The position numbers were made by a program, and so were the translations under genes. Below the pieces are notes generated by a model, which saw only the letters and a list, made by a program, of their open reading frames with translations, searched no databases and was not told the DNA's origin. From an uncultured Oscillospiraceae bacterium (GTDB lineage: Bacteria; Bacillota; Clostridia; Oscillospirales; Oscillospiraceae): DNA of 60,822 bases. Where the stretch lies: assembly GCA_964652075.1 (NCBI GenBank), contig CAZYZQ010000001.1, positions 1,538 through 62,359 on the forward strand, read 5' to 3'. Position 1 is the first letter of the stretch, and each line of letters starts with the position of its first letter. Positions 41,921 through 60,822 of the stretch are shown here, piece after piece.

Positions 41921-43423
41921 ATGCAAAAACGCAAGGGTGGGCGCGTGTGCGCCGTCTGCGAGCTGGGCACCGACCGCATCACGATGCAGGTCGCGCAGAA
42001 TAAAAACGGGCGCGTGGCCGTGCTCGACCGGCTTGAGTGCTTCTTCGACCTTGAAAAAGAGATCCAGTCGACGGGCCTCATCTCCGGCCGGAGCGTCGCG
42101 GCGATCTCGGATATCCTGGCGGGCTTCCTGCGCGTCATGCGCGACTACGGCGTCGAGTCCTCCCGCGCGTTCGGCACGAGCTTCCTGCGCCACGCGGAGA
42201 ACTGCTCGTTCGTGCTCGGCCAGCTCGCCGTGCGCACCGGGATGCAGATCGAGATCATCTCCGACGACGAGGAGAAGACGCTGCTGTACTGGCAGATGCA
42301 CAAGGCGATGAACGACATCGAGCACGACGGCGAGCGCTATCTCTGCGTCGTCCCGGGCACGGACTCGGTCGGCCTTGCGCTGCAAAGCTCCAAGCGCCAG
42401 CGCTCGCGGCAGAACCTGCCTGTGACGCAGTTCGACATCGTCTCGATGCGGATGCAGATCGCCGACGACACCGACGATATCTCTGCGGTCATGGCGGAAT
42501 ACCTGAACGTCGTCACCGAGGGCGTCGTGCCGTTCGGGCTGACGAAGCAGGTCAAGAGCCTCGTTGTGGCCGACAGTGAAATTGAATCCATCGCCCGCGC
42601 CTGCGGCGTCACGCTCTCGCACGGCGCGTGTACCATCAAGGCGGGCAGCCTTTCCAAGGCGGCGCGCGCCATCATGCCGCAGACGCCCGAGACGGCGGAG
42701 CAGACGCTCTCGCTCTCGGCCAAATCAGCCAAAAACGTCTACGCCTCGATCCTGCTCTACGACCAGCTCGCCGCGCTGTGTAAGGTTGACACCGTCGTCG
42801 GCCTGTACGGCGGCCTGACCGCCGCCGTGCTCGAGCAGATGCTCATCAAGCCCCAGCGGCAGGTCTACGAGTCCTTTGTGCGCGAGAACGCGCTCGGCTG
42901 CGCCCGGACGCAGGCGAAAAAGTGCGGGTGCAGCATGGAGCACGTCGAGCTGGTCGCGCGCTTCGCGGGCGAGATGTTCGACAAGCTCCGCCGCCACCAC
43001 GGCCTTGACAGCCGCGCGCGGCTGAAGCTCCAGCTCGCGGCGCTGCTGCACAACTGCGGCTACTTTGTCGATTTGCAGCACCACGCGGCGTGCTCCGACC
43101 GGTTCATCTCCACCTTCTCCGTCTCCGGCCTCGACGACGAGGAGACGCGCTGGGTCGCGGCGATCCAGTCCGGCGCGCCGTCGGAGGATCTCGCGGTCAT
43201 GCGCCTGCGCGCCATCTTCCAGCTCGCGGACGCGCTCGACGCGTCCAAGCGCCAGAAGCTGCAGGAGCTGAATCTGCGCATCGACCCGGAAAAATTCGTC
43301 ATCACGACAATCTGCGACGAAAATCTCTATCTCGAGCAGCGCGCCTTCGCGCAGGCGGCCGCGCTGTTCCAAAAGGTCTACGGCCTGCAGCCGGTCCTGA
43401 ACGTCAAGTCGGGACTGCTGTAG
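41921..43423 (+). CDS. ppx: Exopolyphosphatase / guanosine pentaphosphate phosphohydrolase (Ppx/GppA family)
   Basis: The start is moved to the ATG at 41921 behind GGAGGG (the track starts at 41687), giving 500 aa. It has an ASKHA-fold N-terminal half and an HD-like C-terminal half (LLHNCGYFVD). It is adjacent to ppk1. Confidence 0.85.
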   Translation: MQKRKGGRVCAVCELGTDRITMQVAQNKNGRVAVLDRLECFFDLEKEIQSTGLISGRSVAAISDILAGFLRVMRDYGVESSRAFGTSFLRHAENCSFVLGQLAVRTGMQIEIISDDEEKTLLYWQMHKAMNDIEHDGERYLCVVPGTDSVGLALQSSKRQRSRQNLPVTQFDIVSMRMQIADDTDDISAVMAEYLNVVTEGVVPFGLTKQVKSLVVADSEIESIARACGVTLSHGACTIKAGSLSKAARAIMPQTPETAEQTLSLSAKSAKNVYASILLYDQLAALCKVDTVVGLYGGLTAAVLEQMLIKPQRQVYESFVRENALGCARTQAKKCGCSMEHVELVARFAGEMFDKLRRHHGLDSRARLKLQLAALLHNCGYFVDLQHHAACSDRFISTFSVSGLDDEETRWVAAIQSGAPSEDLAVMRLRAIFQLADALDASKRQKLQELNLRIDPEKFVITTICDENLYLEQRAFAQAAALFQKVYGLQPVLNVKSGLL

Positions 43424-43467
43424 CGATATAGTCAGGCCAGATGCCCGCCTCGTTCTGCGTCGCACCT

Positions 43468-43520
43468 TCAATAGAACAGCTCCCCCTTCGGGGGGAGCTT
43501 AGCGAGGGCTGTTCTATTGA
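43468..43520. repeat. Minimal (53-bp) copy of the mosaic repeat family
   Basis: TCAATAGAACAGC - TCCCCC-TTCG-GGGGGA - GCTTAGCGAGGGCT - GTTCTATTGA has both termini plus one hairpin module, and lies between ppx and ppk1. Confidence 0.75.
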
Positions 43521-43605
43521 TGGTGCTGTACAAATTTGCAGCTGCATCCGCCCTGACCATCTGGTTTTGACACCGTACTACTTCCCGAAAAAAGGAGGAA
43601 TCCCC

Positions 43606-53144: not shown

Positions 53145-53153
53145 TGATATAAT
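53145..53153 (+). promoter_or_regulatory. Extended -10 promoter element upstream of the two-component operon
   Basis: TGATATAAT (TGn + TATAAT at 53148-53153) lies 27 nt before the ATG at 53180. No good -35 element was seen. Confidence 0.45.
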
Positions 53154-53179
53154 CATTTGTGGGAAAGGAACAAGATACT

Positions 53180-53851
53180 ATGAGGATTTTACTTGCTGAG
53201 GATGAGCGCTCTCTTGCAAGGGCAATTGTGAAAATTTTTGAAAAAAACAATTATTCTGCCGATGCGGTTCATAACGGAGAAGATGCCCTCCAGTATATTG
53301 AGTCGGGGAATTATGATGTTGCTGTACTGGATATCATGATGCCTAAAATGGACGGTATCACTGTATTAAAGAAAGTAAGGGAACACGGTAATTCCATTCC
53401 GATTTTGATGCTTACAGCAAAATCGGAGGTTGATGATAAGGTGCTGGGGTTGGATAGCGGAGCGAACTATTATCTTACCAAACCCTTTGACTCCAAAGAG
53501 CTGCTGGCAAGTATACGGGCCATTACAAGAACCGGAACGACTTCAGATTCCAAGCTTTCATTCGGTAATATCACATTGGATCGGGCCACCTTTGAACTTT
53601 CATCATCAACGGGTAGTTTTCGTCTGGCTAATCGGGAATTTCAAATGATGGAGCTTCTAATGGCAAATCCACATCATATTATTTCGGCCGAACGCTTTCT
53701 GGAAAAGATATGGGGGTACGATACCGAAACGGAGATCAGCGTTGTTTGGGTGTACATTTCCTACCTTCGCAAAAAATTACTCGCACTTCATGCAGACATT
53801 CAGATTAAAGCTTCCAGAAACGCAGGCTACGCTTTGGAGGAATCCACATGA
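53180..53851 (+). CDS. OmpR-family response regulator
   Basis: The start is moved to the ATG at 53180 (MRILLAEDE), giving 223 aa. It has a receiver domain (DVAVLDIMMPKMDG, LMLTAK) and a winged-helix output domain (LANREFQMMELLMANPHHIISAERFLEKIWGYD). Confidence 0.95.
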   Translation: MRILLAEDERSLARAIVKIFEKNNYSADAVHNGEDALQYIESGNYDVAVLDIMMPKMDGITVLKKVREHGNSIPILMLTAKSEVDDKVLGLDSGANYYLTKPFDSKELLASIRAITRTGTTSDSKLSFGNITLDRATFELSSSTGSFRLANREFQMMELLMANPHHIISAERFLEKIWGYDTETEISVVWVYISYLRKKLLALHADIQIKASRNAGYALEEST

Positions 53852-55161
53852 TACGAAAACTGAGAACGAAGTTCATCTTTTTGGCCATGTCCTCACTGTT
53901 TGTCCTTTTGCTGTTTATTATCGCTGGTATGAATCTACTAAACTATAATTCAGTGGCAAGAGAAGCGGATGAGATATTATCCATAATTTCGCAGAATAAA
54001 GGTATTTTCCCGGATTTCGGCGAAAATCGGGACGGAATGTTCCCTGCAGATATGTCACCGGAGATTCCGTATGAATCGAGATATTTTTCTATTCTATTAA
54101 GTGATTCCGGTCAAGTGCTTCATGCTGAAATGAGTCAGATTATCGCTGTGGATAAAGATACGGCGACCGAGTATGCGAATAAAATTATTCAATCAGATAG
54201 TAGCAGTGGGTTTGTAGATAACTTCCGATATATTAAGACACAGGAGGAAAACGGTATCCGTGTTACTTTTCTTGACTGCGGAAGGAAACTGGATATTTTT
54301 CAGAACTTTTTGATCATCAGCATCATCATGGCACTATCAGGGTATCTCGTTGTATTCGTTGTTATATCCATATTTTCAAAAAAATTCATCCACCCCGTCG
54401 CAGAGAGTTATGAGAAGCAAAAACGCTTCATCACGGATGCCGGACACGAGATCAAAACGCCGCTTACAATCATAAACTCCAATGTCGATCTCCTGAAAAT
54501 GGATATCGGGGATAACGAATGTTTGGAAGACATTCAGCAGCAAGCAAAACGACTTACTGCGCTAACAAACGATCTGATTTATTTGGCGCGCATGGAGGAA
54601 TCCGAGAATACATTGCAAATGATTGAGTTTCCGGTTTCTGAAATAGTGCTGGAAGCCGCAATGCCATTTAAAACATTGGCAGAGACTCAACAAAAACAAT
54701 TCGTATGTAATGTGCAACCGATGTTATCCATGCAAGGGAACGATAAAACCATACAGCAATTGGTCTCCATACTTATGGATAATGCCATTAAATATTCGCC
54801 GTCCAACGGGGTTGTATCGCTAAATTTGGTGCGCCAAAATAAAAATCTTGCCCTGATCGTATTTAATACAACCGAAACCTTTGTTCCATCCGAAAGCCTT
54901 CATCATGTGTTTGACCGTTTCTATCGAACCGATCCTTCCCGCAATTCAGAAACTGGCGGTCATGGCATCGGGCTTTCAGTTGCAAAAGCCATCGTTACAG
55001 CGCACAATGGGCAAATCAACGCGCAAACGCAGGATGGGCACTCTTTTCAGATCACAGCAACTTTTCCTATTAATAACCACGAAAAAGGTGCGCCTCCAAC
55101 TCCGTGGAGACGCGCCTTTTCATATCTGTTCGGGTGCCACCCAAAAACGATCTGCTTTTAA
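53848..55161 (+). CDS. Sensor histidine kinase
   Basis: 437 aa with two TM helices flanking a ~130-aa outside loop. It has an H-box (FITDAGHEIKTPLT), N-box (LMDNAIKYSP) and G-boxes (DRFYR.D, GGHGIGLSVAK). A 4-nt overlap links it to the regulator gene. The last ~30 codons run through a terminator-like hairpin. Confidence 0.93.
   Translation: MIRKLRTKFIFLAMSSLFVLLLFIIAGMNLLNYNSVAREADEILSIISQNKGIFPDFGENRDGMFPADMSPEIPYESRYFSILLSDSGQVLHAEMSQIIAVDKDTATEYANKIIQSDSSSGFVDNFRYIKTQEENGIRVTFLDCGRKLDIFQNFLIISIIMALSGYLVVFVVISIFSKKFIHPVAESYEKQKRFITDAGHEIKTPLTIINSNVDLLKMDIGDNECLEDIQQQAKRLTALTNDLIYLARMEESENTLQMIEFPVSEIVLEAAMPFKTLAETQQKQFVCNVQPMLSMQGNDKTIQQLVSILMDNAIKYSPSNGVVSLNLVRQNKNLALIVFNTTETFVPSESLHHVFDRFYRTDPSRNSETGGHGIGLSVAKAIVTAHNGQINAQTQDGHSFQITATFPINNHEKGAPPTPWRRAFSYLFGCHPKTICF
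55086..55121 (+). terminator. Terminator-like hairpin inside the 3' tail of the kinase ORF
   Basis: AGGTGCGCCTCC-(8 nt)-GGAGACGCGCCT (one wobble pair and one mismatch) followed by TTTTC. It lies 40 nt before the annotated stop. Confidence 0.45.
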
Positions 55162-55215
55162 GTCCAGTTAAGCCTTCTGTACTATAATCACAATAAATTC
55201 TTAGGAGGAGGTGAT

Positions 55216-55872
55216 TTGTGTTTGACCCACGAAGAATTCTATGGTTCGGCATTAGATGACCTGAAGCTGGCGAAGCAACAGCTTCTCGAACTGGTTCACC
55301 TGTATTCTGATACTGAAACAAAAGACAGTCCGTTTAAGGCTGTCGTATACTGCTGTTCGCGCATAAAATCACCGAGCAGTGTTATACAAAAACTGGAACG
55401 GCTGGGCTTTGCACAAACTGTCGAGACCGCATTGACCAATTTATACGATGTTGTTGGTATACGTGTCGTCTGTTCTTTTGCGGAGGATGTATACCGAATT
55501 GTCGCATGGCTCAAAAAGCAATCGCTAATCCAGTTTCAAAATGAAAAAGATTATTACGCGTACCCAAAGCCAAACGGATACCGAAGTTATCATGTTCAGT
55601 TAAAGGTTTTTATTGCAGAAAACAAAGTATTTCCTGCCGAGATACAGGTTCGCACGATTGCTACAGATTTTTGGGCAACGCTGGAACACCAAATCAAGTA
55701 CAAAAAGAATTTACCACATGAAACCATCATTCGTAATGAGCTTAAGCAATGCGCAGATGAAATAGCCTCCGTTGATTTATCTATGCAAACAATCCGAGAC
55801 GTCATCCGCGAATCGCTTCTCATAGCTGAAAATAAGGAAGAAGGAGGAAAACACAATGGACTATCGTCATGA
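55216..55872 (+). CDS. Small alarmone synthetase, RelQ/RelP type ((p)ppGpp synthetase, RelA_SpoT domain only)
   Basis: 218 aa with a TTG start just after AGGAGGAGGTG. It is collinear by eye with B. subtilis RelQ: SRIKSPSSVIQKLER, DVVGIRVVCSF.EDVY, YAYPKPNGYRSYH and EIQVRTIATDFWATLEH.IKYK. Confidence 0.9.
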   Translation: MCLTHEEFYGSALDDLKLAKQQLLELVHLYSDTETKDSPFKAVVYCCSRIKSPSSVIQKLERLGFAQTVETALTNLYDVVGIRVVCSFAEDVYRIVAWLKKQSLIQFQNEKDYYAYPKPNGYRSYHVQLKVFIAENKVFPAEIQVRTIATDFWATLEHQIKYKKNLPHETIIRNELKQCADEIASVDLSMQTIRDVIRESLLIAENKEEGGKHNGLSS

Positions 55873-56527
55873 ATGGAAGCACGAGATCAATACTTCTGAT
55901 ATGATTGCCATTCGCCATAGGCTACGGGCTGTAGCGAAACCTGACCCACATACTGTAGACGACAAGTATCTGATCCGAAGTCTTTATTTTGATGATATAA
56001 CAGACAAGGCTTTGCGAGAGAAGCTGGACGGCATAAATCAGCGGGAGAAGTTCCGAATCAGATATTATAACGGAAATGTTTCCCTTATCCATTTAGAAAA
56101 AAAGAGCAAACGAAATGGGCTGGGTGCCAAAGACATGGCTGTCTTAACCGAAACGGAAGCGCAAGCTATCGTAGATGGGAATCTGGACTGGATGCCATCG
56201 TCAAACCGCCCGTTGGTTCGGGAACTATACAGCAAAATGAAGTCAAATGGTCTGCGTCCGAAGACTATTGTGGATTACACCCGAGAACCCTTTGTGTACG
56301 CTCCCGGTAATGTCCGGGTCACGCTGGATTACAACATCCGCACAGGTTTAGGCTGCACTGATTTTTTGAATGTAAACTGCATCACCATTCCTGCCGGAGA
56401 CGCCCCCATTATTCTGGAAGTGAAGTGGGACGAGTTCTTGCCGGATATTATCCGGGATGCCGTTCAACTCACGGGGCGCCGTGTCTCAGCGTTTTCCAAG
56501 TATGCACAGTGCCGTATCTACGGGTAG
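55856..56527 (+). CDS. VTC-domain protein (CYTH-like triphosphate-tunnel, polyphosphate-polymerase-domain family)
   Basis: 223 aa with a GAAGGAGGA RBS, overlapping the synthetase gene by 17 nt. YRHEWKHEI, IRSLYFDD..DKAL.EK.DG...REKFRIRYYN, IHLEKKSK..GL..K, RPKTIVDYTREPFVY..GNVRVTLD and ILEVKWDEFLP....AFSKYA.CR follow the bacterial VTC-domain pattern as I recall it. Confidence 0.8.
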   Translation: MDYRHEWKHEINTSDMIAIRHRLRAVAKPDPHTVDDKYLIRSLYFDDITDKALREKLDGINQREKFRIRYYNGNVSLIHLEKKSKRNGLGAKDMAVLTETEAQAIVDGNLDWMPSSNRPLVRELYSKMKSNGLRPKTIVDYTREPFVYAPGNVRVTLDYNIRTGLGCTDFLNVNCITIPAGDAPIILEVKWDEFLPDIIRDAVQLTGRRVSAFSKYAQCRIYG

Positions 56528-56582
56528 CCGATCAAAAAAATTCTCACCTTTCTCAGTCATGTCTACGAAGGGAGGTCTTGAT

Positions 56583-58460
56583 ATGATGAAGAGAATTCTT
56601 TCCATGTGCATGGTTCTCACAATGCTCACCGGCTGCGGAGCAGGCGTGGAGCAGCAGAGTGCGGCAAATGCGACTCAAACTCTCAATATATCTGATGAAG
56701 AAATTCAGGCGATGACCCTGGAGAGCACGAATGATATACCGCTTTCCGAATACGAAAACATGGAAGTCCTCGTACAATACAGCGACGGAAGCGTTGAGGT
56801 GCTGTCCTTTGAAGACGAGGAAAGTCTCGCCGAAGGGCTTGAACAGCTATCACAGGATGAGGCTGTTGCATGGTTTCAGCCAAACTACTCCTATGAGACA
56901 AGCGCTCTTTCAACAACCGATACACTGACTGCTTACCAGTGGGCGCTCTCCAATGACGGCAGTTTCCAGATGGAAGAAAAGCAAAATCGGTATCCCGTCT
57001 ATGAATCTCCGTTTGGGACGCCGTATGCGCCGTGGCAGTGGATCATGCCGAACTTTATCGGAACGCCCGGAGGCTTTCGCCGCTCAGGTTTCAGTGCCAC
57101 ATCTGCAGAACAGATTTCTGCAGAGCCCGGTATTGATATCAATGTTGAGGACGCATGGGCTCTCTACGACGGAGGCAGCCGTGATGTTGTAATTGCTCTG
57201 ATCGATACAGGTATTGATTATACCCATGAGGATCTGCAGGACGTTATTTGGACTAACACCGGCGAGATCCCCGGAAACAATGTGGACGACGACGGCAACG
57301 GTTATGTCGATGATGTGTACGGGTGGAACTTTTATAATAACAACAATCGGGTCTATGTCAGCAGTACAGACGACAGCCACGGTACTCATGGTGCCGGAAC
57401 GATTGCAGCATCCGCTGACAACGGGATCGGCATTTCCGGGATCACGAACAGCGATCATGTAAAGATCATGTCACTCAAAGCGCTGGGCGGCTCAGACGGA
57501 AGCGGCTCCACCGCCTCGATCATTCGAGCGATCCAATATGCGGAGGCAAATGGCGCGTCGATCTGCAACCTCAGTCTCGGCAGCTCCACCAATGACCGCG
57601 CGTTGTATCAGGCCATTGCCAATTCCTCCATGCTGTTTGTAGTCGCAGCGGGAAATGATGGGGCGGACACAGATACGAACCCCTGTTATCCCGCATCCTA
57701 TGAGCTGGACAATATTATTTCTGTGGCAAATCTGAACTACAACGGAGCGCTGCATTACAGCTCGAACTATGGCACAACTTCCGTTGACCTGGCGGCTCCT
57801 GGTTCCTATATCCTCAGCACCACGCCGGGAAACAATTACAGCTATATGACAGGAACCTCTATGGCGGCACCTATGGTCACCGCTGCCGCGGCCATGCTCT
57901 ATTCCTATTATGACGATATTACACTGGCCGATGTGAAGGATATTCTCCTGGCCTCTGTGACGGAGCTTGACACATTGACCGACAGTGTGGCGACAGGTGG
58001 CATGCTGAACCTCGGAGCTGCGATGGCCTATGATACAAGCACGCTGTCACATGAGACATGGGATGCATCAGTTGTAATTGACAGTGGGACCGCTCCTGAG
58101 ATCCTTGCTGAAACGGTTTCACAGGGAAACAGCACTTATTTGGTGGTGCAGGTGACCGATGCGGACAACGATCTTTCTGTTACTGCGTATGCTTCGGGAA
58201 CACTTACCGCACAGCAATTCCAAAGCGGTGCTGTAGGCAAAGCATTTTCTGTAGACAGCACCGGTAAAGTGATTTTCTCTGTGCAGAGCAGCGGGACCTT
58301 TACCTTCTATGCCCGTGACAGCATGGGAAATGAAACCGTAAAAACTGTTTCAGTCACAGCTCGGCAAAACGATTACCGCTCGAGTCCTATCGGAGACAGG
58401 AACCGAAACTCATGGCCAAACCAAACACCGACCGGGATTGCCTGGAGAGGTATGCGGTAG
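56583..58460 (+). CDS. S8 (subtilisin-like) serine protease, lipoprotein
   Basis: The start is moved to the ATG at 56583 behind GGGAGG (the track starts at 56457). It has a lipobox (MLTGC). The catalytic triad motifs are ALIDTGIDYTHEDL, HGTHGAGTIAA and GTSMAAPMVTAAAAML. A C-terminal beta-rich domain follows. Confidence 0.92.
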   Translation: MMKRILSMCMVLTMLTGCGAGVEQQSAANATQTLNISDEEIQAMTLESTNDIPLSEYENMEVLVQYSDGSVEVLSFEDEESLAEGLEQLSQDEAVAWFQPNYSYETSALSTTDTLTAYQWALSNDGSFQMEEKQNRYPVYESPFGTPYAPWQWIMPNFIGTPGGFRRSGFSATSAEQISAEPGIDINVEDAWALYDGGSRDVVIALIDTGIDYTHEDLQDVIWTNTGEIPGNNVDDDGNGYVDDVYGWNFYNNNNRVYVSSTDDSHGTHGAGTIAASADNGIGISGITNSDHVKIMSLKALGGSDGSGSTASIIRAIQYAEANGASICNLSLGSSTNDRALYQAIANSSMLFVVAAGNDGADTDTNPCYPASYELDNIISVANLNYNGALHYSSNYGTTSVDLAAPGSYILSTTPGNNYSYMTGTSMAAPMVTAAAAMLYSYYDDITLADVKDILLASVTELDTLTDSVATGGMLNLGAAMAYDTSTLSHETWDASVVIDSGTAPEILAETVSQGNSTYLVVQVTDADNDLSVTAYASGTLTAQQFQSGAVGKAFSVDSTGKVIFSVQSSGTFTFYARDSMGNETVKTVSVTARQNDYRSSPIGDRNRNSWPNQTPTGIAWRGMR

Positions 58461-58529
58461 TGAATATCCGCAATATGGCCATTCGTATAAAACCGATCTC
58501 ACATTTCATAAGACAAGGAGAATTCTACC

Positions 58530-59201
58530 ATGACATTCAGCGATATTTTTAAATCCAGCTTTCTGGAAAATGTGTCTGCTGTCAGTGCCTTTGATATGGC
58601 CCTGGCTCTTATCCTCGCCTTTGGGCTTGGCATGTTTATCTTTCTGGTCTATAAAAAGACCTACCAGGGCGTGATGTACTCCTCCAGCTTCGGCGTGACG
58701 CTGCTGGCTTTGACGATGATCACAACACTGGTCATCCTGGCCGTCACCAGCAATGTGGTGCTGTCCCTTGGCATGGTGGGTGCTCTGTCTATTGTTCGTT
58801 TCCGTACCGCAATCAAGGAGCCGCTGGACATTGCCTTCCTGTTCTGGTCCATTGCCGCCGGTATTGTTCTGGCAGCTGGCATGATCCCGTTGGCGGTGAT
58901 TGGAAGTGTTATTATCGGTGTTATCTTGCTCGTTTTCGTAAACAGAAAATCTCACAGCAATCCGTACATAGTCGTTTTGCAGTGTGCTGATCACGAGAGT
59001 GAAACTGCAGCCAAAGCGTATCTTGATCAGACGACATATAAATGCACCGTCAAGAGCAAGTCGGCTCAAAAGGGCCTGATTGAATTGAACCTGGAAATTC
59101 GGCTCAAAAACGACAACACTGACTTTATTAACGAGCTTTCCGAAATGCCGGGAATCGGCAGTGCAGTTCTGGTGAGTTATAATGGAGACTATATGGGGTG
59201 A
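58530..59201 (+). CDS. DUF4956-like polytopic membrane protein
   Basis: 223 aa with four N-terminal hydrophobic segments, including the motif LSLGMVGALSIVRFRTAIKEPLDIAFLFW, then a ~80-aa soluble C-terminal domain. This family is the usual genomic partner of bacterial VTC-domain genes. Confidence 0.8.
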   Translation: MTFSDIFKSSFLENVSAVSAFDMALALILAFGLGMFIFLVYKKTYQGVMYSSSFGVTLLALTMITTLVILAVTSNVVLSLGMVGALSIVRFRTAIKEPLDIAFLFWSIAAGIVLAAGMIPLAVIGSVIIGVILLVFVNRKSHSNPYIVVLQCADHESETAAKAYLDQTTYKCTVKSKSAQKGLIELNLEIRLKNDNTDFINELSEMPGIGSAVLVSYNGDYMG

Positions 59202-59207
59202 TACGAA

Positions 59208-60822
59208 ATGTCAACGAGCAAGCATATTGATCTCATTTGCTTAGTCGTTTCCATTTTCGCCTTACTTCTCACCGGATTGTTTATCAACGGCGAAGCCCTT
59301 GGGCTGACACCAATTGAAGATGGCGATGCCGGGAGCGATCAGTTTACAGCCAATGATCTCAACGCGGACTGGGATACTTCCTCCGCGACCCAAATCACAC
59401 TGACCGGAGATAGCGGCAGCGTGAAAGGCAGTGGTGCCTACATCGACGGCGGTGATATACACATTCTGTATGCGGGTGAATATGTGATCTCCGGTGAATT
59501 GTCCGATGGCAGTGTGATCATCGACGCAGGTGACACCGACAAGATCTGGATCCTTCTGAACGGTGTCTCCCTGCACTGCGAAGACAGCGCAGCTATCCTG
59601 ATAGAGCAGGCAGAGAAGGTGTTTTTGACTCTTGCAAGTGGAACGGAAAATTCTATTTCAAGTGGTACAGAATATACAGAGAGCGCAGTCTCAAATGGAA
59701 TTGATGGTGCGATCTATTCCAGAGATGACCTGACCATCAACGGCAGTGGCTCTCTTACCGTAACAGCCGCATACAAGCACGGCATAGTCGGCAATGATGA
59801 TCTTGTGATTACCGGCGGCACAATCAATGTAACAGCGGCACAGGATGGCGTCCACGCCAACGACAGCGTGAGGTTCGCAAATGCTGATCTCACTGTCAAC
59901 GCTGGGGACGATGGCATCACCGTATCCAACGACGACGAGACTGCCTATCTCTATGTGGAGTCCGGTAACATCAACATTCTATCCTGCTATGAAGGACTGG
60001 AAGCCATCGATATCACCATCGCCGGTGGTACAATTGACATCCGGCCTACGGACGATGGGATTAATGCTAATGGACGGGGTAGCAATTCAGCAATCAATAT
60101 CACAGGCGGCGATATCACCATCATTAACGAAACAGGCCGCGACGCAGATGGCTTGGATTCCAATGGTGACATCTATATCAGCGGTGGAAATACTTTTATC
60201 AGTGTCAGTACTTCAAGCTGTGCTCTGGACTATGGCAGTGAGAACGGCGGCGTAAGTGAGGTCAGCGGCGGCACGGTTATTGCAGCGGGCGGCAGTTCTA
60301 TGGCAGAGGGGTTTGACTCCACGTCAGAACAGAATTTCATCATGTACACTACCTCCACAGCCGCTTCTGGTACAACTGTTACCTTAAAAAACGAAGCGGG
60401 AACCACGCTGATATCAGAATCTATCCCGTGCAGCTTTTCCTCTATTGTAATCAGCACGCCTGAGTTACAGTTGGGCGAAACCTGTTCCATTTCCATTGGT
60501 GATAGCTTAGATGAGATCACAGTTGATAACTCCTCCAGTTCGGGCGGCTTCGGTATGGGTGGTATGTTCGGCGGTGGTATGCAGCAAGGTGGTTTCGGCA
60601 TGGGAGACATGTTTGGCGGACGCGGTGGAAAAGCAGGCCAATTCTCTGGCAACCAGCCAAATGCCAGCGATGAAAATACAGCGGAAAGTCAGCCGCAAGA
60701 TATGCTGGAAATGCCTAATGGTGATACACCACAGATGCCGGATGGTAATTTTTCGGACGGCGAAGCTCCACAGATGCCAGATGGCGATTTCTCGGACGGC
60801 GAAGCTCCACAGATGCCAGACG
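59208..60822 (+). CDS. Secreted/anchored parallel-beta-helix-like protein (Cthe_2159 / carbohydrate-binding-domain family-like), 3' end outside the window
   Basis: This gene is not in the ORF track because it has no stop in the window. The ATG at 59208 lies 6 nt after the DUF4956 stop, and I read the frame open for 538 codons to the window end. It has an N-terminal anchor (HIDLICLVVSIFALLLTGLFI). Repetitive G-x-I/V-x-I/V-x-G/A-G/D turns follow (ITGGTINVTAAQDGVHAN, LTVNAGDDGITV, ITIAGGTIDIRPTDDGINAN, ITGGDITIINE). A Gly/Met-rich segment and PQMPDG-FSDGEA repeats complete the visible part. Confidence 0.8.
   Translation, partial: MSTSKHIDLICLVVSIFALLLTGLFINGEALGLTPIEDGDAGSDQFTANDLNADWDTSSATQITLTGDSGSVKGSGAYIDGGDIHILYAGEYVISGELSDGSVIIDAGDTDKIWILLNGVSLHCEDSAAILIEQAEKVFLTLASGTENSISSGTEYTESAVSNGIDGAIYSRDDLTINGSGSLTVTAAYKHGIVGNDDLVITGGTINVTAAQDGVHANDSVRFANADLTVNAGDDGITVSNDDETAYLYVESGNINILSCYEGLEAIDITIAGGTIDIRPTDDGINANGRGSNSAINITGGDITIINETGRDADGLDSNGDIYISGGNTFISVSTSSCALDYGSENGGVSEVSGGTVIAAGGSSMAEGFDSTSEQNFIMYTTSTAASGTTVTLKNEAGTTLISESIPCSFSSIVISTPELQLGETCSISIGDSLDEITVDNSSSSGGFGMGGMFGGGMQQGGFGMGDMFGGRGGKAGQFSGNQPNASDENTAESQPQDMLEMPNGDTPQMPDGNFSDGEAPQMPDGDFSDGEAPQMPD
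60729..60822 (+). repeat. 39-bp in-frame tandem repeat (13-aa unit PQMPDG[ND]FSDGEA), truncated by the window end
   Basis: Units at 60729-60767 and 60768-60806 differ at a few positions. A third unit starts at 60807 and is cut off at 60822. Confidence 0.85.

Follow-up and report, generated by a model that had tools for sequence, protein, structure and literature searches.

Bacterial polyphosphate is attributed to PPK1 and PPK2. In the yeast VTC complex (3G3Q/3G3R, 8I6V) a triphosphate-tunnel enzyme, Vtc4, is combined with a dedicated membrane protein. Work by cryogenic electron microscopy (cryo-EM) reported that Vtc4 residues K200, R264, R266, K281, Y359, R361, S457 and K458 are required for polyphosphate in vivo, that E426 is a Mn2+ ligand and that, among these residues, only K458 is replaced in the inactive Vtc2 and Vtc3 (10.1101/2023.01.27.525886). 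In bacteria, a group of cotH, polyphosphate polymerase and DUF4956 genes adjoins the pel loci of Gram-positive bacteria (Whitfield et al. 2020, PMC7112168), is contained in Clostridium perfringens NELoc-2 (PMC2879425) and corresponds to SIR_1592-1594 of Streptococcus intermedius (PMC12345266). In Staphylococcus aureus, transcription of relP/relQ is under the control of the envelope-sensing two-component system VraRS (PMC7533549). Here we describe a gene block in the low-GC 3' part of a 60,822-nt stretch of DNA from an uncultured Oscillospiraceae bacterium (the window), in which a two-component system and a small alarmone synthetase (SAS) precede a gene for a Vtc4-like VTC protein, a DUF4956 membrane protein gene and a gene for a beta-helix ectoprotein.

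The block comprises seven co-oriented open reading frames (ORFs; n = 7) at 53159-60822, encoding a response regulator (RR), a sensor histidine kinase (HK), the SAS, the VTC protein, an S8 protease, DUF4956 and a Cthe_2159-type protein (Table 1). All seven proteins scored above the Pfam gathering score, the family threshold, and every Pfam family proposed in an initial annotation, made from the sequence alone, was matched. That annotation also held for the VTC fold, the recurrence of the cassette and the SAS-VTC overlap; its RelQ label did not stand, and the translocase role that it gave to DUF4956 was less well supported. Like the yeast complex, the locus combines the tunnel fold and the substrate and Mn2+ residues with a dedicated membrane protein. 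It differs in that the VTC protein is a 223-aa stand-alone enzyme of predicted activity without SPX or a fused Vtc1-type transmembrane (TM) domain, and in that its partner is DUF4956, unrelated to Vtc1 and placed in the bacterial cytoplasmic membrane with an ectoprotein as a third component. With the pel accessory group, a cassette type noticed before but never characterised, it shares an adjacent VTC and DUF4956 pair with a secreted or anchored third protein; the window has no pel genes and differs by a Cthe_2159 beta-helix gene in place of CotH, by the two-component system and SAS linked ahead of it and by the inserted S8 protease.

With confidence evenly divided, we read the locus as a regulon by which a member of the gut or rumen Clostridia responds to envelope stress, in secretion or in the cell wall, and which carries a Vtc4-like polymerase cassette. 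The kinase would sense an extracytoplasmic signal through a 127-aa loop, and the OmpR-type regulator would most likely bind a 19-bp box, TTTTAAGTCCAGTTAAG, lying 8 nt from the -10 element at the usual place of the -35 element. It would thereby activate three promoters: its own, that of an operon for an alpha-CTD-like protein and a cyclophilin, and that of the SAS-VTC-S8-DUF4956-Cthe_2159 operon. The RelP-like SAS would raise cytoplasmic (p)ppGpp, and VTC, translationally coupled to it, would most likely build polyphosphate at the membrane from the gamma-phosphate of ATP. DUF4956, as obligate polytopic partner, would dock the enzyme and pass or present the polymer to the outer face, where the tethered beta-helix ectoprotein, replaced by a CotH kinase in most relatives, would bind or use it. 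Folding and proteolysis factors would be co-induced, namely the cyclophilin and the lipoprotein subtilase here and HtrA elsewhere. The analysis itself establishes the gene content, the conserved cassette, the VTC catalytic residues and fold, the recurring SAS-VTC overlap, the box with its positions and a predicted topology; we infer that polyphosphate is the product and is exported, what DUF4956 does, what stimulates the kinase and any chemical link between alarmone and polymer. To the known cassette the locus adds a candidate regulator box with its regulon, conserved translational coupling to an SAS and the interchange of CotH and beta-helix on one anchor, which make it a testable system.

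The VTC protein and the three-gene cassette

The VTC family model PF09359 scored 126.2 bits against a cut-off of 23 and was covered from position 2 to 230 of 235; by Pfam and TM prediction the protein has the VTC domain only, with no SPX domain and no TM helix. A single-sequence phmmer search of the PDB matched no solved structure. A search of 1.84 billion representatives gave 4474 clusters (50% identity) at E<=1e-3, and a family profile built from 51 diverse members among them matched the Vtc4 catalytic domain 3G3Q at 1.1e-8. The residues aligned with those of Vtc4 are listed in Table 1; R67, R69, E81, K83, Y141, R143 and E188 were invariant among the 51 members, and R154 and K190 nearly so. 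S214 was invariant and K215 nearly invariant in the same members, within a motif FSKY that reads FSKF in Vtc4. Judged from this motif and its spacing, the protein very probably keeps the lysine that separates active Vtc4 from inactive Vtc2 and Vtc3.

The AlphaFold2 model of the VTC protein had a pLDDT of 94.9 and a pTM of 0.90. In a Foldseek search with this model the best match was Vtc4 (3G3R, E 1.4e-13, TM-score 0.74), and the top 13 PDB matches were all Vtc4, Vtc2 or Vtc3 chains, ahead of other tunnel enzymes. The basic tunnel residues and the Vtc4 fold anticipated in the initial annotation were thus both found, the aligned residues being conserved and the model matching Vtc4 best. If the assignment is true, a stand-alone Vtc4-like enzyme with a catalytic set very probably intact, present in thousands of clusters, would be a further source of polyphosphate.

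Table 1 Features of the window and residues of the VTC protein aligned with yeast Vtc4.
Feature	Coordinates	Strand	Evidence and remarks
Soluble Vtc4-like triphosphate-tunnel protein (VTC), 223 aa	55856..56527	+	VTC PF09359 1.9e-36
VTC R67/R69 = Vtc4 R264/R266			HMMER profile alignment
VTC E81/K83 = Vtc4 E279/K281			HMMER profile alignment
VTC Y141/R143 = Vtc4 Y359/R361			HMMER profile alignment
VTC R154 = Vtc4 R373			HMMER profile alignment
VTC E188/K190 = Vtc4 E426/K428			HMMER profile alignment
DUF4956 polytopic membrane protein, soluble C-terminal domain	58530..59201	+	PF16316 2.9e-12, 47.1 bits vs 30.6
Cthe_2159 beta-helix ectoprotein, membrane-anchored	59208..60822, runs off window	+	PF14262 1.4e-69, 234.8 bits
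Lipoprotein subtilase S8, 625 aa	56583..58460	+	Peptidase_S8 4.3e-49, 167.8 bits
RelP-like small alarmone synthetase (SAS), 216 aa	55222..55872	+	RelA_SpoT 3.8e-31
SAS 3' end / VTC start overlap, 17 nt, ATGGACTATCGTCATGA	55856..55872	+	SAS stop 55872, VTC ATG 55856
OmpR/PhoB-family response regulator (RR), 223 aa	53180..53851	+	Pfam Response_reg + Trans_reg_C; recorded gene call
Sensor histidine kinase (HK)	53848..55161	+	HisKA + HATPase_c; 4-nt overlap with RR gene
GC-rich hairpin + short T-run	55090..55113	.	Inside HK ORF 3' tail; weak terminator or attenuator
Regulator box 1, TTTTTAGTACAGTTAAGGT	52835..52853	-	8 nt upstream of extended -10 TGTATAAT; before alpha-CTD-like + cyclophilin genes
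Regulator box 2, TTTTAAGTCCAGTTAAGCC	55156..55174	+	8 nt upstream of TATAAT; SAS-VTC operon promoter
Regulator box 3, TTTTAGCTACAGTTAATGT	53029..53047	+	8 nt upstream of -10-like TAAGTT; before RR-HK; 18.3 bits
RNA_pol_A_CTD-like helix-hairpin-helix protein, 77 aa	52565..52798	-	RNA_pol_A_CTD 1.1e-11; first gene of divergent operon
Membrane-anchored cyclophilin-type peptidyl-prolyl isomerase, 455 aa	51178..52545	-	Pro_isomerase 1.4e-45; recorded gene call
DUF4340 protein, ABC_transp_aux (GldG-like), ABC-2 permease, ABC ATPase	46035..50819	-	Pfam; possible regulon neighbours
PPK1	43606-45705		Four PPK domains, complete; 64% GC part

The gene neighbourhood of VTC was surveyed in one genome per GTDB species, which gave 80 loci (VTC 65-79% identical; loci of this and of the other neighbourhood comparisons are numbered with L below), 77 of them used for counts. 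Almost all belonged to Oscillospiraceae, Lachnospiraceae and other Clostridia of the rumen or gut, and cultured carriers of the cassette are Butyrivibrio sp. INlla18 and AC2005 and Parablautia muri D42-62. DUF4956 lay directly 3' of VTC in 75/77 loci and was followed by a same-strand third gene in 68/72, mostly 9-12 nt downstream. According to Pfam, 50 of these 68 third genes encode CotH and 17 Cthe_2159. The association of VTC, DUF4956 and a beta-helix protein, which the initial annotation had put forward, therefore recurs, with CotH as the frequent alternative neighbour. Judged from gene order and domain content, the core cassette is a very common, self-contained unit of VTC, DUF4956 and a predicted membrane-anchored ectoprotein. 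Longer VTC proteins examined for fusions had no second domain; one candidate VTC-DUF4956 fusion (P0311) was rejected, both of its domains being truncated in what looks like a frameshift.

Of about 65 loci that could be assessed, 40 had a two-component system at most three genes upstream, co-directional in 20 and divergent in 20, and no other family recurred in the flanks of the 77 cassettes. Neither pelDEADAFG nor a recurrent glycosyltransferase family was found in these flanks or at 46-60.8 kb of the window. This stand-alone cassette in 77 Clostridia species contrasts with a statement that no such trio was found away from pel loci (PMC12345266). The closest VTC relatives (84-87% identical) belong to a three-gene VTC-DUF4956-Cthe_2159 unit without SAS or S8. 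The window deviates from the usual cassette in two respects: S8 splits VTC from DUF4956, and the third gene is of the Cthe_2159 rather than the CotH type.

CotH- and Cthe_2159-type third genes (L013-L092) encode a common N-terminus, in which MSTHKxIDxIC is followed by a TM helix and LFMNGExLG, and most of the proteins end in a low-complexity tail, Gly/Met-rich in many, and a C-terminal TM helix. The membrane anchor stays the same and the outside domain has been exchanged, CotH kinase for beta-helix. That one anchor can hold either a kinase or a beta-helix that binds polyanions or carbohydrate would fit a shared external ligand. The enzyme's fixed partners, a membrane protein and an ectoprotein, point to the cell surface. 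The finding also bears on which phosphoryl donor extracytoplasmic CotH kinases use.

The Cthe_2159-type protein of the window matched PDB 4PEU (phmmer 2.3e-29), that is, Cthe_2159 of Clostridium thermocellum, with which it shares the beta-helix family. It differs from that protein by its N-terminal TM anchor, its Gly/Met-rich repeat tail and its operon link to VTC-DUF4956. The features described initially were all recovered: the gene follows DUF4956 after a 6-nt gap (59202-59207), and its product combines an N-terminal TM helix with a Gly/Met-rich tail that holds two repeats of 13 aa, PQMPDG[ND]FSDGEA. Full-length relatives have 598-638 aa and a second TM helix at the end. In L005 (13433-16594) a 1053-aa protein combining SLH and Cthe_2159 domains is encoded directly after the cassette's own beta-helix gene.

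The S8 protein has a lipobox, LTGC, and the motifs DTGID, HGTHGAG and GTSMAAP of the Asp-His-Ser triad. The initial annotation had singled out a secreted protease inserted between VTC and its membrane partner. The insertion is present, and it is private to this contig: S8 was absent from the 77 related cassettes, and relatives carry HtrA instead, at other positions.

Regulator box, two-component system and alarmone synthetase

The regions upstream of SAS, VTC, HtrA and RR genes were compared in loci with an orthologous kinase, and the 19-bp box found in this way contains two direct TTAAG repeats 10 bp apart. Allowing up to three mismatches, the window contained the exact site and one 2-mismatch site only, with none expected by chance. 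A weight matrix applied at >=12 bits gave three matches only in the 60.8-kb window, all in promoters of the cluster. Box 3 was outside the training set of the matrix; autoregulation of RR-HK through it is probable. In 1.7 Mb of related loci, 31 matches of at least 18 bits were found against 1.6 in block shuffles, and 17 matches at 20 bits against 0.1, raw counts that are inflated by duplicates of near-identical loci. These boxes lie about 45-50 nt upstream of SAS, VTC, HtrA, RR, cyclophilin and Cthe_2159 genes. Taken together, they indicate that the box defines a regulon, for which the literature searched held no description.

The TATAAT element of the SAS-VTC promoter lies at 55183-55188, the position first assigned to it. 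A generic promoter scan of the window did not list this 55.2-kb promoter because it has no -35 match, and the box fills that place. The spacing from box to -10 is the geometry expected of an OmpR/PhoB-type activator that replaces the -35 element. The link initially suggested between the two-component system and this promoter is upheld, as a predicted site, by the conserved box there and before RR-HK.

The two-component system is of the OmpR/PhoB type, with a receiver and winged-helix regulator, a HisKA/HATPase_c kinase and a tandem direct-repeat site at the -35 position. The RR shares 78-84% identity with its counterparts in the orthologous operons L150, L007, L147 and L092, and the HK 61-64% with the kinases of L007, L150 and L147. 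The outside loop of the HK, put at about 130 aa at first, measured 127 aa between TM helices 9-27 and 155-173. In Bacillus subtilis the CssRS system, an OmpR-type regulator with a large-loop two-TM kinase, controls HtrA/HtrB. By description the system of the window is similar, with its OmpR-type regulator and large-loop kinase and with HtrA and cyclophilin genes that carry the box in relatives; it differs in that the regulon would add an SAS and the VTC cassette. VraRS resembles it in that a RelP-type, synthetase-only enzyme is under an envelope-sensing two-component system, predicted in our case. VraR is a NarL-type regulator, whereas the regulator of the window is OmpR-type and the SAS gene lies directly behind the kinase gene, overlapping the VTC gene.

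A terminator-like hairpin had been placed between the HK and SAS genes. The hairpin is present, though it lies within the 3' end of the HK ORF. This ORF encodes 437 aa compared with about 408-411 aa in the closest orthologues, a difference of 26-29 aa, and the original HK stop was probably lost. The extra tail (55086-55161) reads through the hairpin into the regulator box.

RelA_SpoT is the sole domain of the SAS, which has no hydrolase or regulatory C-terminal domains. The motifs RxKxxxSxxxK, DxxGxR, GYRSxH and EIQxRT..W...EH were invariant in the SAS and nine relatives. Its likely start is TTG 55222, as called on an independent contig. Against the PDB it matched S. aureus RelP (6EWZ) at 8.1e-37, RelQ/YjbM at 5.4e-22 and the CapRel-type 7ZTB/9ERV at 1.6e-7; it was also closer to B. 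subtilis YwaC than to RelQ/YjbM, and it reached 117 bits in the NCBIfam equivalog GTPPhKinYjbM, below the cut-off of 320. The RelQ-type label given initially was replaced by RelP-like on these grounds. Relatives up to 72% identical mostly occur in RR-HK-SAS modules without VTC, and the SAS belongs to this conserved type of module.

The 17-nt overlap between SAS and VTC was verified at the coordinates first proposed and is not unique to this contig. In L150-L153 (14 contigs from several samples) the order is RR-HK-HtrA-SAS-VTC-DUF4956-CotH with a 17-nt overlap as in the window, and the proteins are 80% (RR), 64% (HK), 58% (SAS), 73% (VTC) and 86% (DUF4956) identical to those of the window. The 17-mer of these loci and of L147, ATGGATTACCGGCATGA, has three synonymous differences from that of the window; L147 itself comprises RR-HK-SAS, ending in this near-identical 17-mer. 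Among the best 120 SAS clusters, four end in ...GL[SP][SA], the signature of reading across ATGGAYTAYCGNCATGA, and most SAS relatives have no overlapping partner gene. The linkage of SAS and VTC proposed initially therefore recurs in orthologous operons, in a small sub-clade: an SAS near the VTC cassette is rare, standing upstream in 1/77 VTC loci.

Other arrangements were HK-SAS-HtrA-VTC-DUF4956-CotH in L071, HK-VTC-DUF4956-Cthe_2159-SAS with a very divergent cassette in L097 (a human gut sample), and a divergent Cthe_2159 gene adjoining RR-HK-SAS in L007. In L149 (8001-9966; metagenome-assembled genome GCA_965355535.1) the gene that the SAS overlaps by 17 nt encodes a membrane cyclophilin instead of VTC, and FtsX and ABC genes come next. 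This SAS clade seems prone to overlaps at its 3' end, which are not specific to VTC, since the gene overlapped in L149 encodes a cyclophilin. As far as gene content tells, members of this SAS clade recur, in varying order, with their two-component system, with either the VTC cassette or Cthe_2159, and with genes for a membrane cyclophilin and an extracytoplasmic protease. In L007 (2906-5652) the Cthe_2159 gene is followed by a gene for a phosphodiester glycosidase (NAGPA, PF09992). NAGPA-type enzymes remove sugar-1-phosphate caps, so this neighbour hints at phosphodiester-linked surface glycans.

The overlap could also be read as the mark of a tunnel hydrolase that degrades or converts the SAS product, (p)ppGpp or pppApp, the two genes forming a synthetase/hydrolase or toxSAS/antitoxin-like pair. 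Many triphosphate-tunnel enzymes hydrolyse, and such enzymes do appear lower in the Foldseek list; the overlap is conserved in the sub-clade, and the SAS of L149 likewise overlaps its downstream gene. That downstream gene, however, encodes a cyclophilin, 76/77 related VTC cassettes lack an SAS, the SAS of the window matches housekeeping RelP (8e-37) far better than CapRel-type toxSAS (1.6e-7), and the VTC protein is structurally nearest to Vtc4, with the lysine of the active polymerase very probably kept. We regard this alternative as quite improbable, and its toxSAS/antitoxin form was ranked low on the distance from CapRel, the SAS-free cassettes and the cyclophilin overlap. For a polymerase within an alarmone-linked regulon, one possible link between alarmone and polymer is that in Escherichia coli (p)ppGpp inhibits exopolyphosphatase.

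DUF4956 and the proposed route of the polymer

DUF4956 is the most conserved part of the cassette (68-82% identical, 60 species), with an invariant stretch around SNVVLSLGMVGALSIVRFRTAIKEP. It had been described as a four-TM protein. It is a membrane protein, and its predicted helices number three strongly hydrophobic and two weaker ones. Searches of the PDB gave nothing with the single sequence and noise only with the family profile. The idea of a dedicated membrane partner stands (75/77 loci), and that of a translocase is less well supported, there being no likeness to the Vtc1 channel and a poor model. From gene order and conservation, DUF4956 may serve as a docking site or a conduit.

Building on the reading of the locus as an envelope stress regulon, we tentatively propose VTC-DUF4956 as a third bacterial polyphosphate route, although we doubt it more than we believe it. 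In this proposal a coupled synthase-exporter would deliver a polymer rich in phosphoanhydride bonds to the outer face, where ATP is lacking; there it would be a phosphoryl donor for an anchored CotH kinase or be captured by the anchored beta-helix protein on wall polysaccharide. An envelope-stress two-component system would switch the route on, and in one sub-clade the synthase would be made in a fixed ratio with a RelP-type SAS.

Alternatively, VTC and DUF4956 may serve intracellular phosphate or energy homeostasis with no export, DUF4956 being an MgtC-like regulator with a ligand-binding C-terminal domain that anchors or controls polyphosphate synthesis or another tunnel-enzyme activity, and the ectoprotein being merely co-regulated. 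Weak MgtC/SapB similarity extends over nearly the full length of DUF4956, no channel has been demonstrated in the DUF4956 family, and the S. intermedius homologue is described as an MgtC-type TM domain with a cytoplasmic ACT domain (PMC12345266). The tight coupling of the third gene, with gaps of 9-12 nt, speaks against mere co-regulation, and an anchor that stays constant while the ectodomain swaps argues for a physical three-part, membrane-spanning machine. If the contig is real, PPK1 and Ppx are moreover already encoded for cytoplasmic polyphosphate. On balance we hold this intracellular role to be unlikely.

A number of observations weigh against the reading of the locus as a regulon with a polymerase and exporter. 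In the enzyme, the correspondences K8 = K200 and S214/K215 = S457/K458 were placed by motif and spacing only, with no printed alignment, and a C-terminal fragment profile for the equivalent of K458 did not retrieve Vtc4. In the literature searched we found no polyphosphate synthesis by a bacterial VTC-only protein. DUF4956 has no similarity to a Vtc1-type channel, and the neighbour of VTC is not DUF202; the DUF4956 model, made from a two-clade alignment, had a pLDDT of 59.7 and an unresolved C-terminal domain and was too poor for a fold search. MgtC proteins are known as regulators and not as transporters, and the relation of DUF4956 to them would be remote at most, as it scored below the MgtC/SapB thresholds (NCBIfam PRK09977 27.8 bits vs 214; Pfam MgtC E 0.49, 11.2 vs 31.4 bits). 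The ORFs of the survey came from a crude script-based selection labelled by phmmer. The box sites were initially chosen by eye, the weight matrix was trained on 13 sites, and two of its three matches in the window were in that training set. The 76/77 related cassettes without SAS indicate that the alarmone is dispensable for the core function. For S. intermedius, the accessible part of PMC12345266 names only the mutants in DUF4956 and CotH as lowering Pel-dependent aggregation, and the VTC mutant is not among them.

Base composition and neighbouring genes

The low-GC block noted in the initial annotation was evident: the window has about 64% GC until 45.7 kb and 42-52% beyond. The composition break, at about 45706-46034, starts immediately 3' of the GC-rich terminator hairpin of PPK1, and the GC content at third codon positions (GC3) is 0.92 for PPK1 vs 0.41-0.62 for the genes downstream of the break. 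The low-GC block continues to the end of the contig (62,359 nt). At the junction no tRNA was present and no integrase or repeat was seen. Contigs of the same run in Logan that cover the block are 1.7-6.1 kb long and none reaches the junction; the ABC permease was found on one other contig only, of 1.7 kb. The block may be a genomic island, or else the assembly may be chimeric at this point. Of the 'foreign DNA' called initially, the composition break is real, and a foreign origin is inseparable from such a chimera.

The block is itself uneven, with 42-43% GC in RR, HK and SAS and 48-52% from VTC to Cthe_2159. The genomes with near-identical VTC cassettes range over 44-60% GC, as if the cassette were passed between Clostridia. 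The block might on such grounds be a mosaic without functional meaning, in which recombination or metagenome misassembly brought together a mobile VTC cassette and an RR-HK-SAS module, with S8 as a passenger. This difference in GC, the closest VTC cassettes (84-87% identical) lacking SAS in genomes of 44-60% GC, the abutting 64% GC DNA and an S8 gene found only in this contig would all agree with it. An independent assembly of run SRR10165007, however, gave a 6.1-kb contig, 100% identical, that runs from HK through the Cthe_2159 gene and on which the SAS and S8 starts were called at 55222 and 56583. Orthologous operons with the same overlap were present in 14 contigs from other samples, and one box type stands before SAS, VTC, HtrA and cyclophilin genes in many species. 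A mosaic of this kind we consider highly improbable.

The GC break is immediately preceded, at 41921-45705, by genes for a Ppx/GppA-family phosphatase and PPK1. Provided that the contig is genuine, the host would own classical polyphosphate enzymes beside the VTC block. The window proteins that were looked up all formed singleton clusters without names, and the DUF4340 protein with the start chosen here had no database record.

Divergent from RR-HK, the alpha-CTD-like gene has a ribosome-binding site, GGAGGTG, and an ATG at 52798, downstream of box 1 and TGTATAAT. In the cyclophilin a TM helix was predicted at residues 249-267 of a 482-aa ORF (51178-52626), equal to about 222-240 in the 455-aa product; this places a long N-terminal region in the cytoplasm and the isomerase domain outside. 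Cyclophilin homologues lie 3' of SAS in L007 and L149 and bear the box in L007 and L142. The weight-matrix scan found no box before the window's own copy of the ABC genes. In L067 (752-1795), an ABC ATPase gene whose product is 57% identical to that of window positions 49803-50819 lies directly behind the best-scoring box, divergent from RR-HK-VTC.

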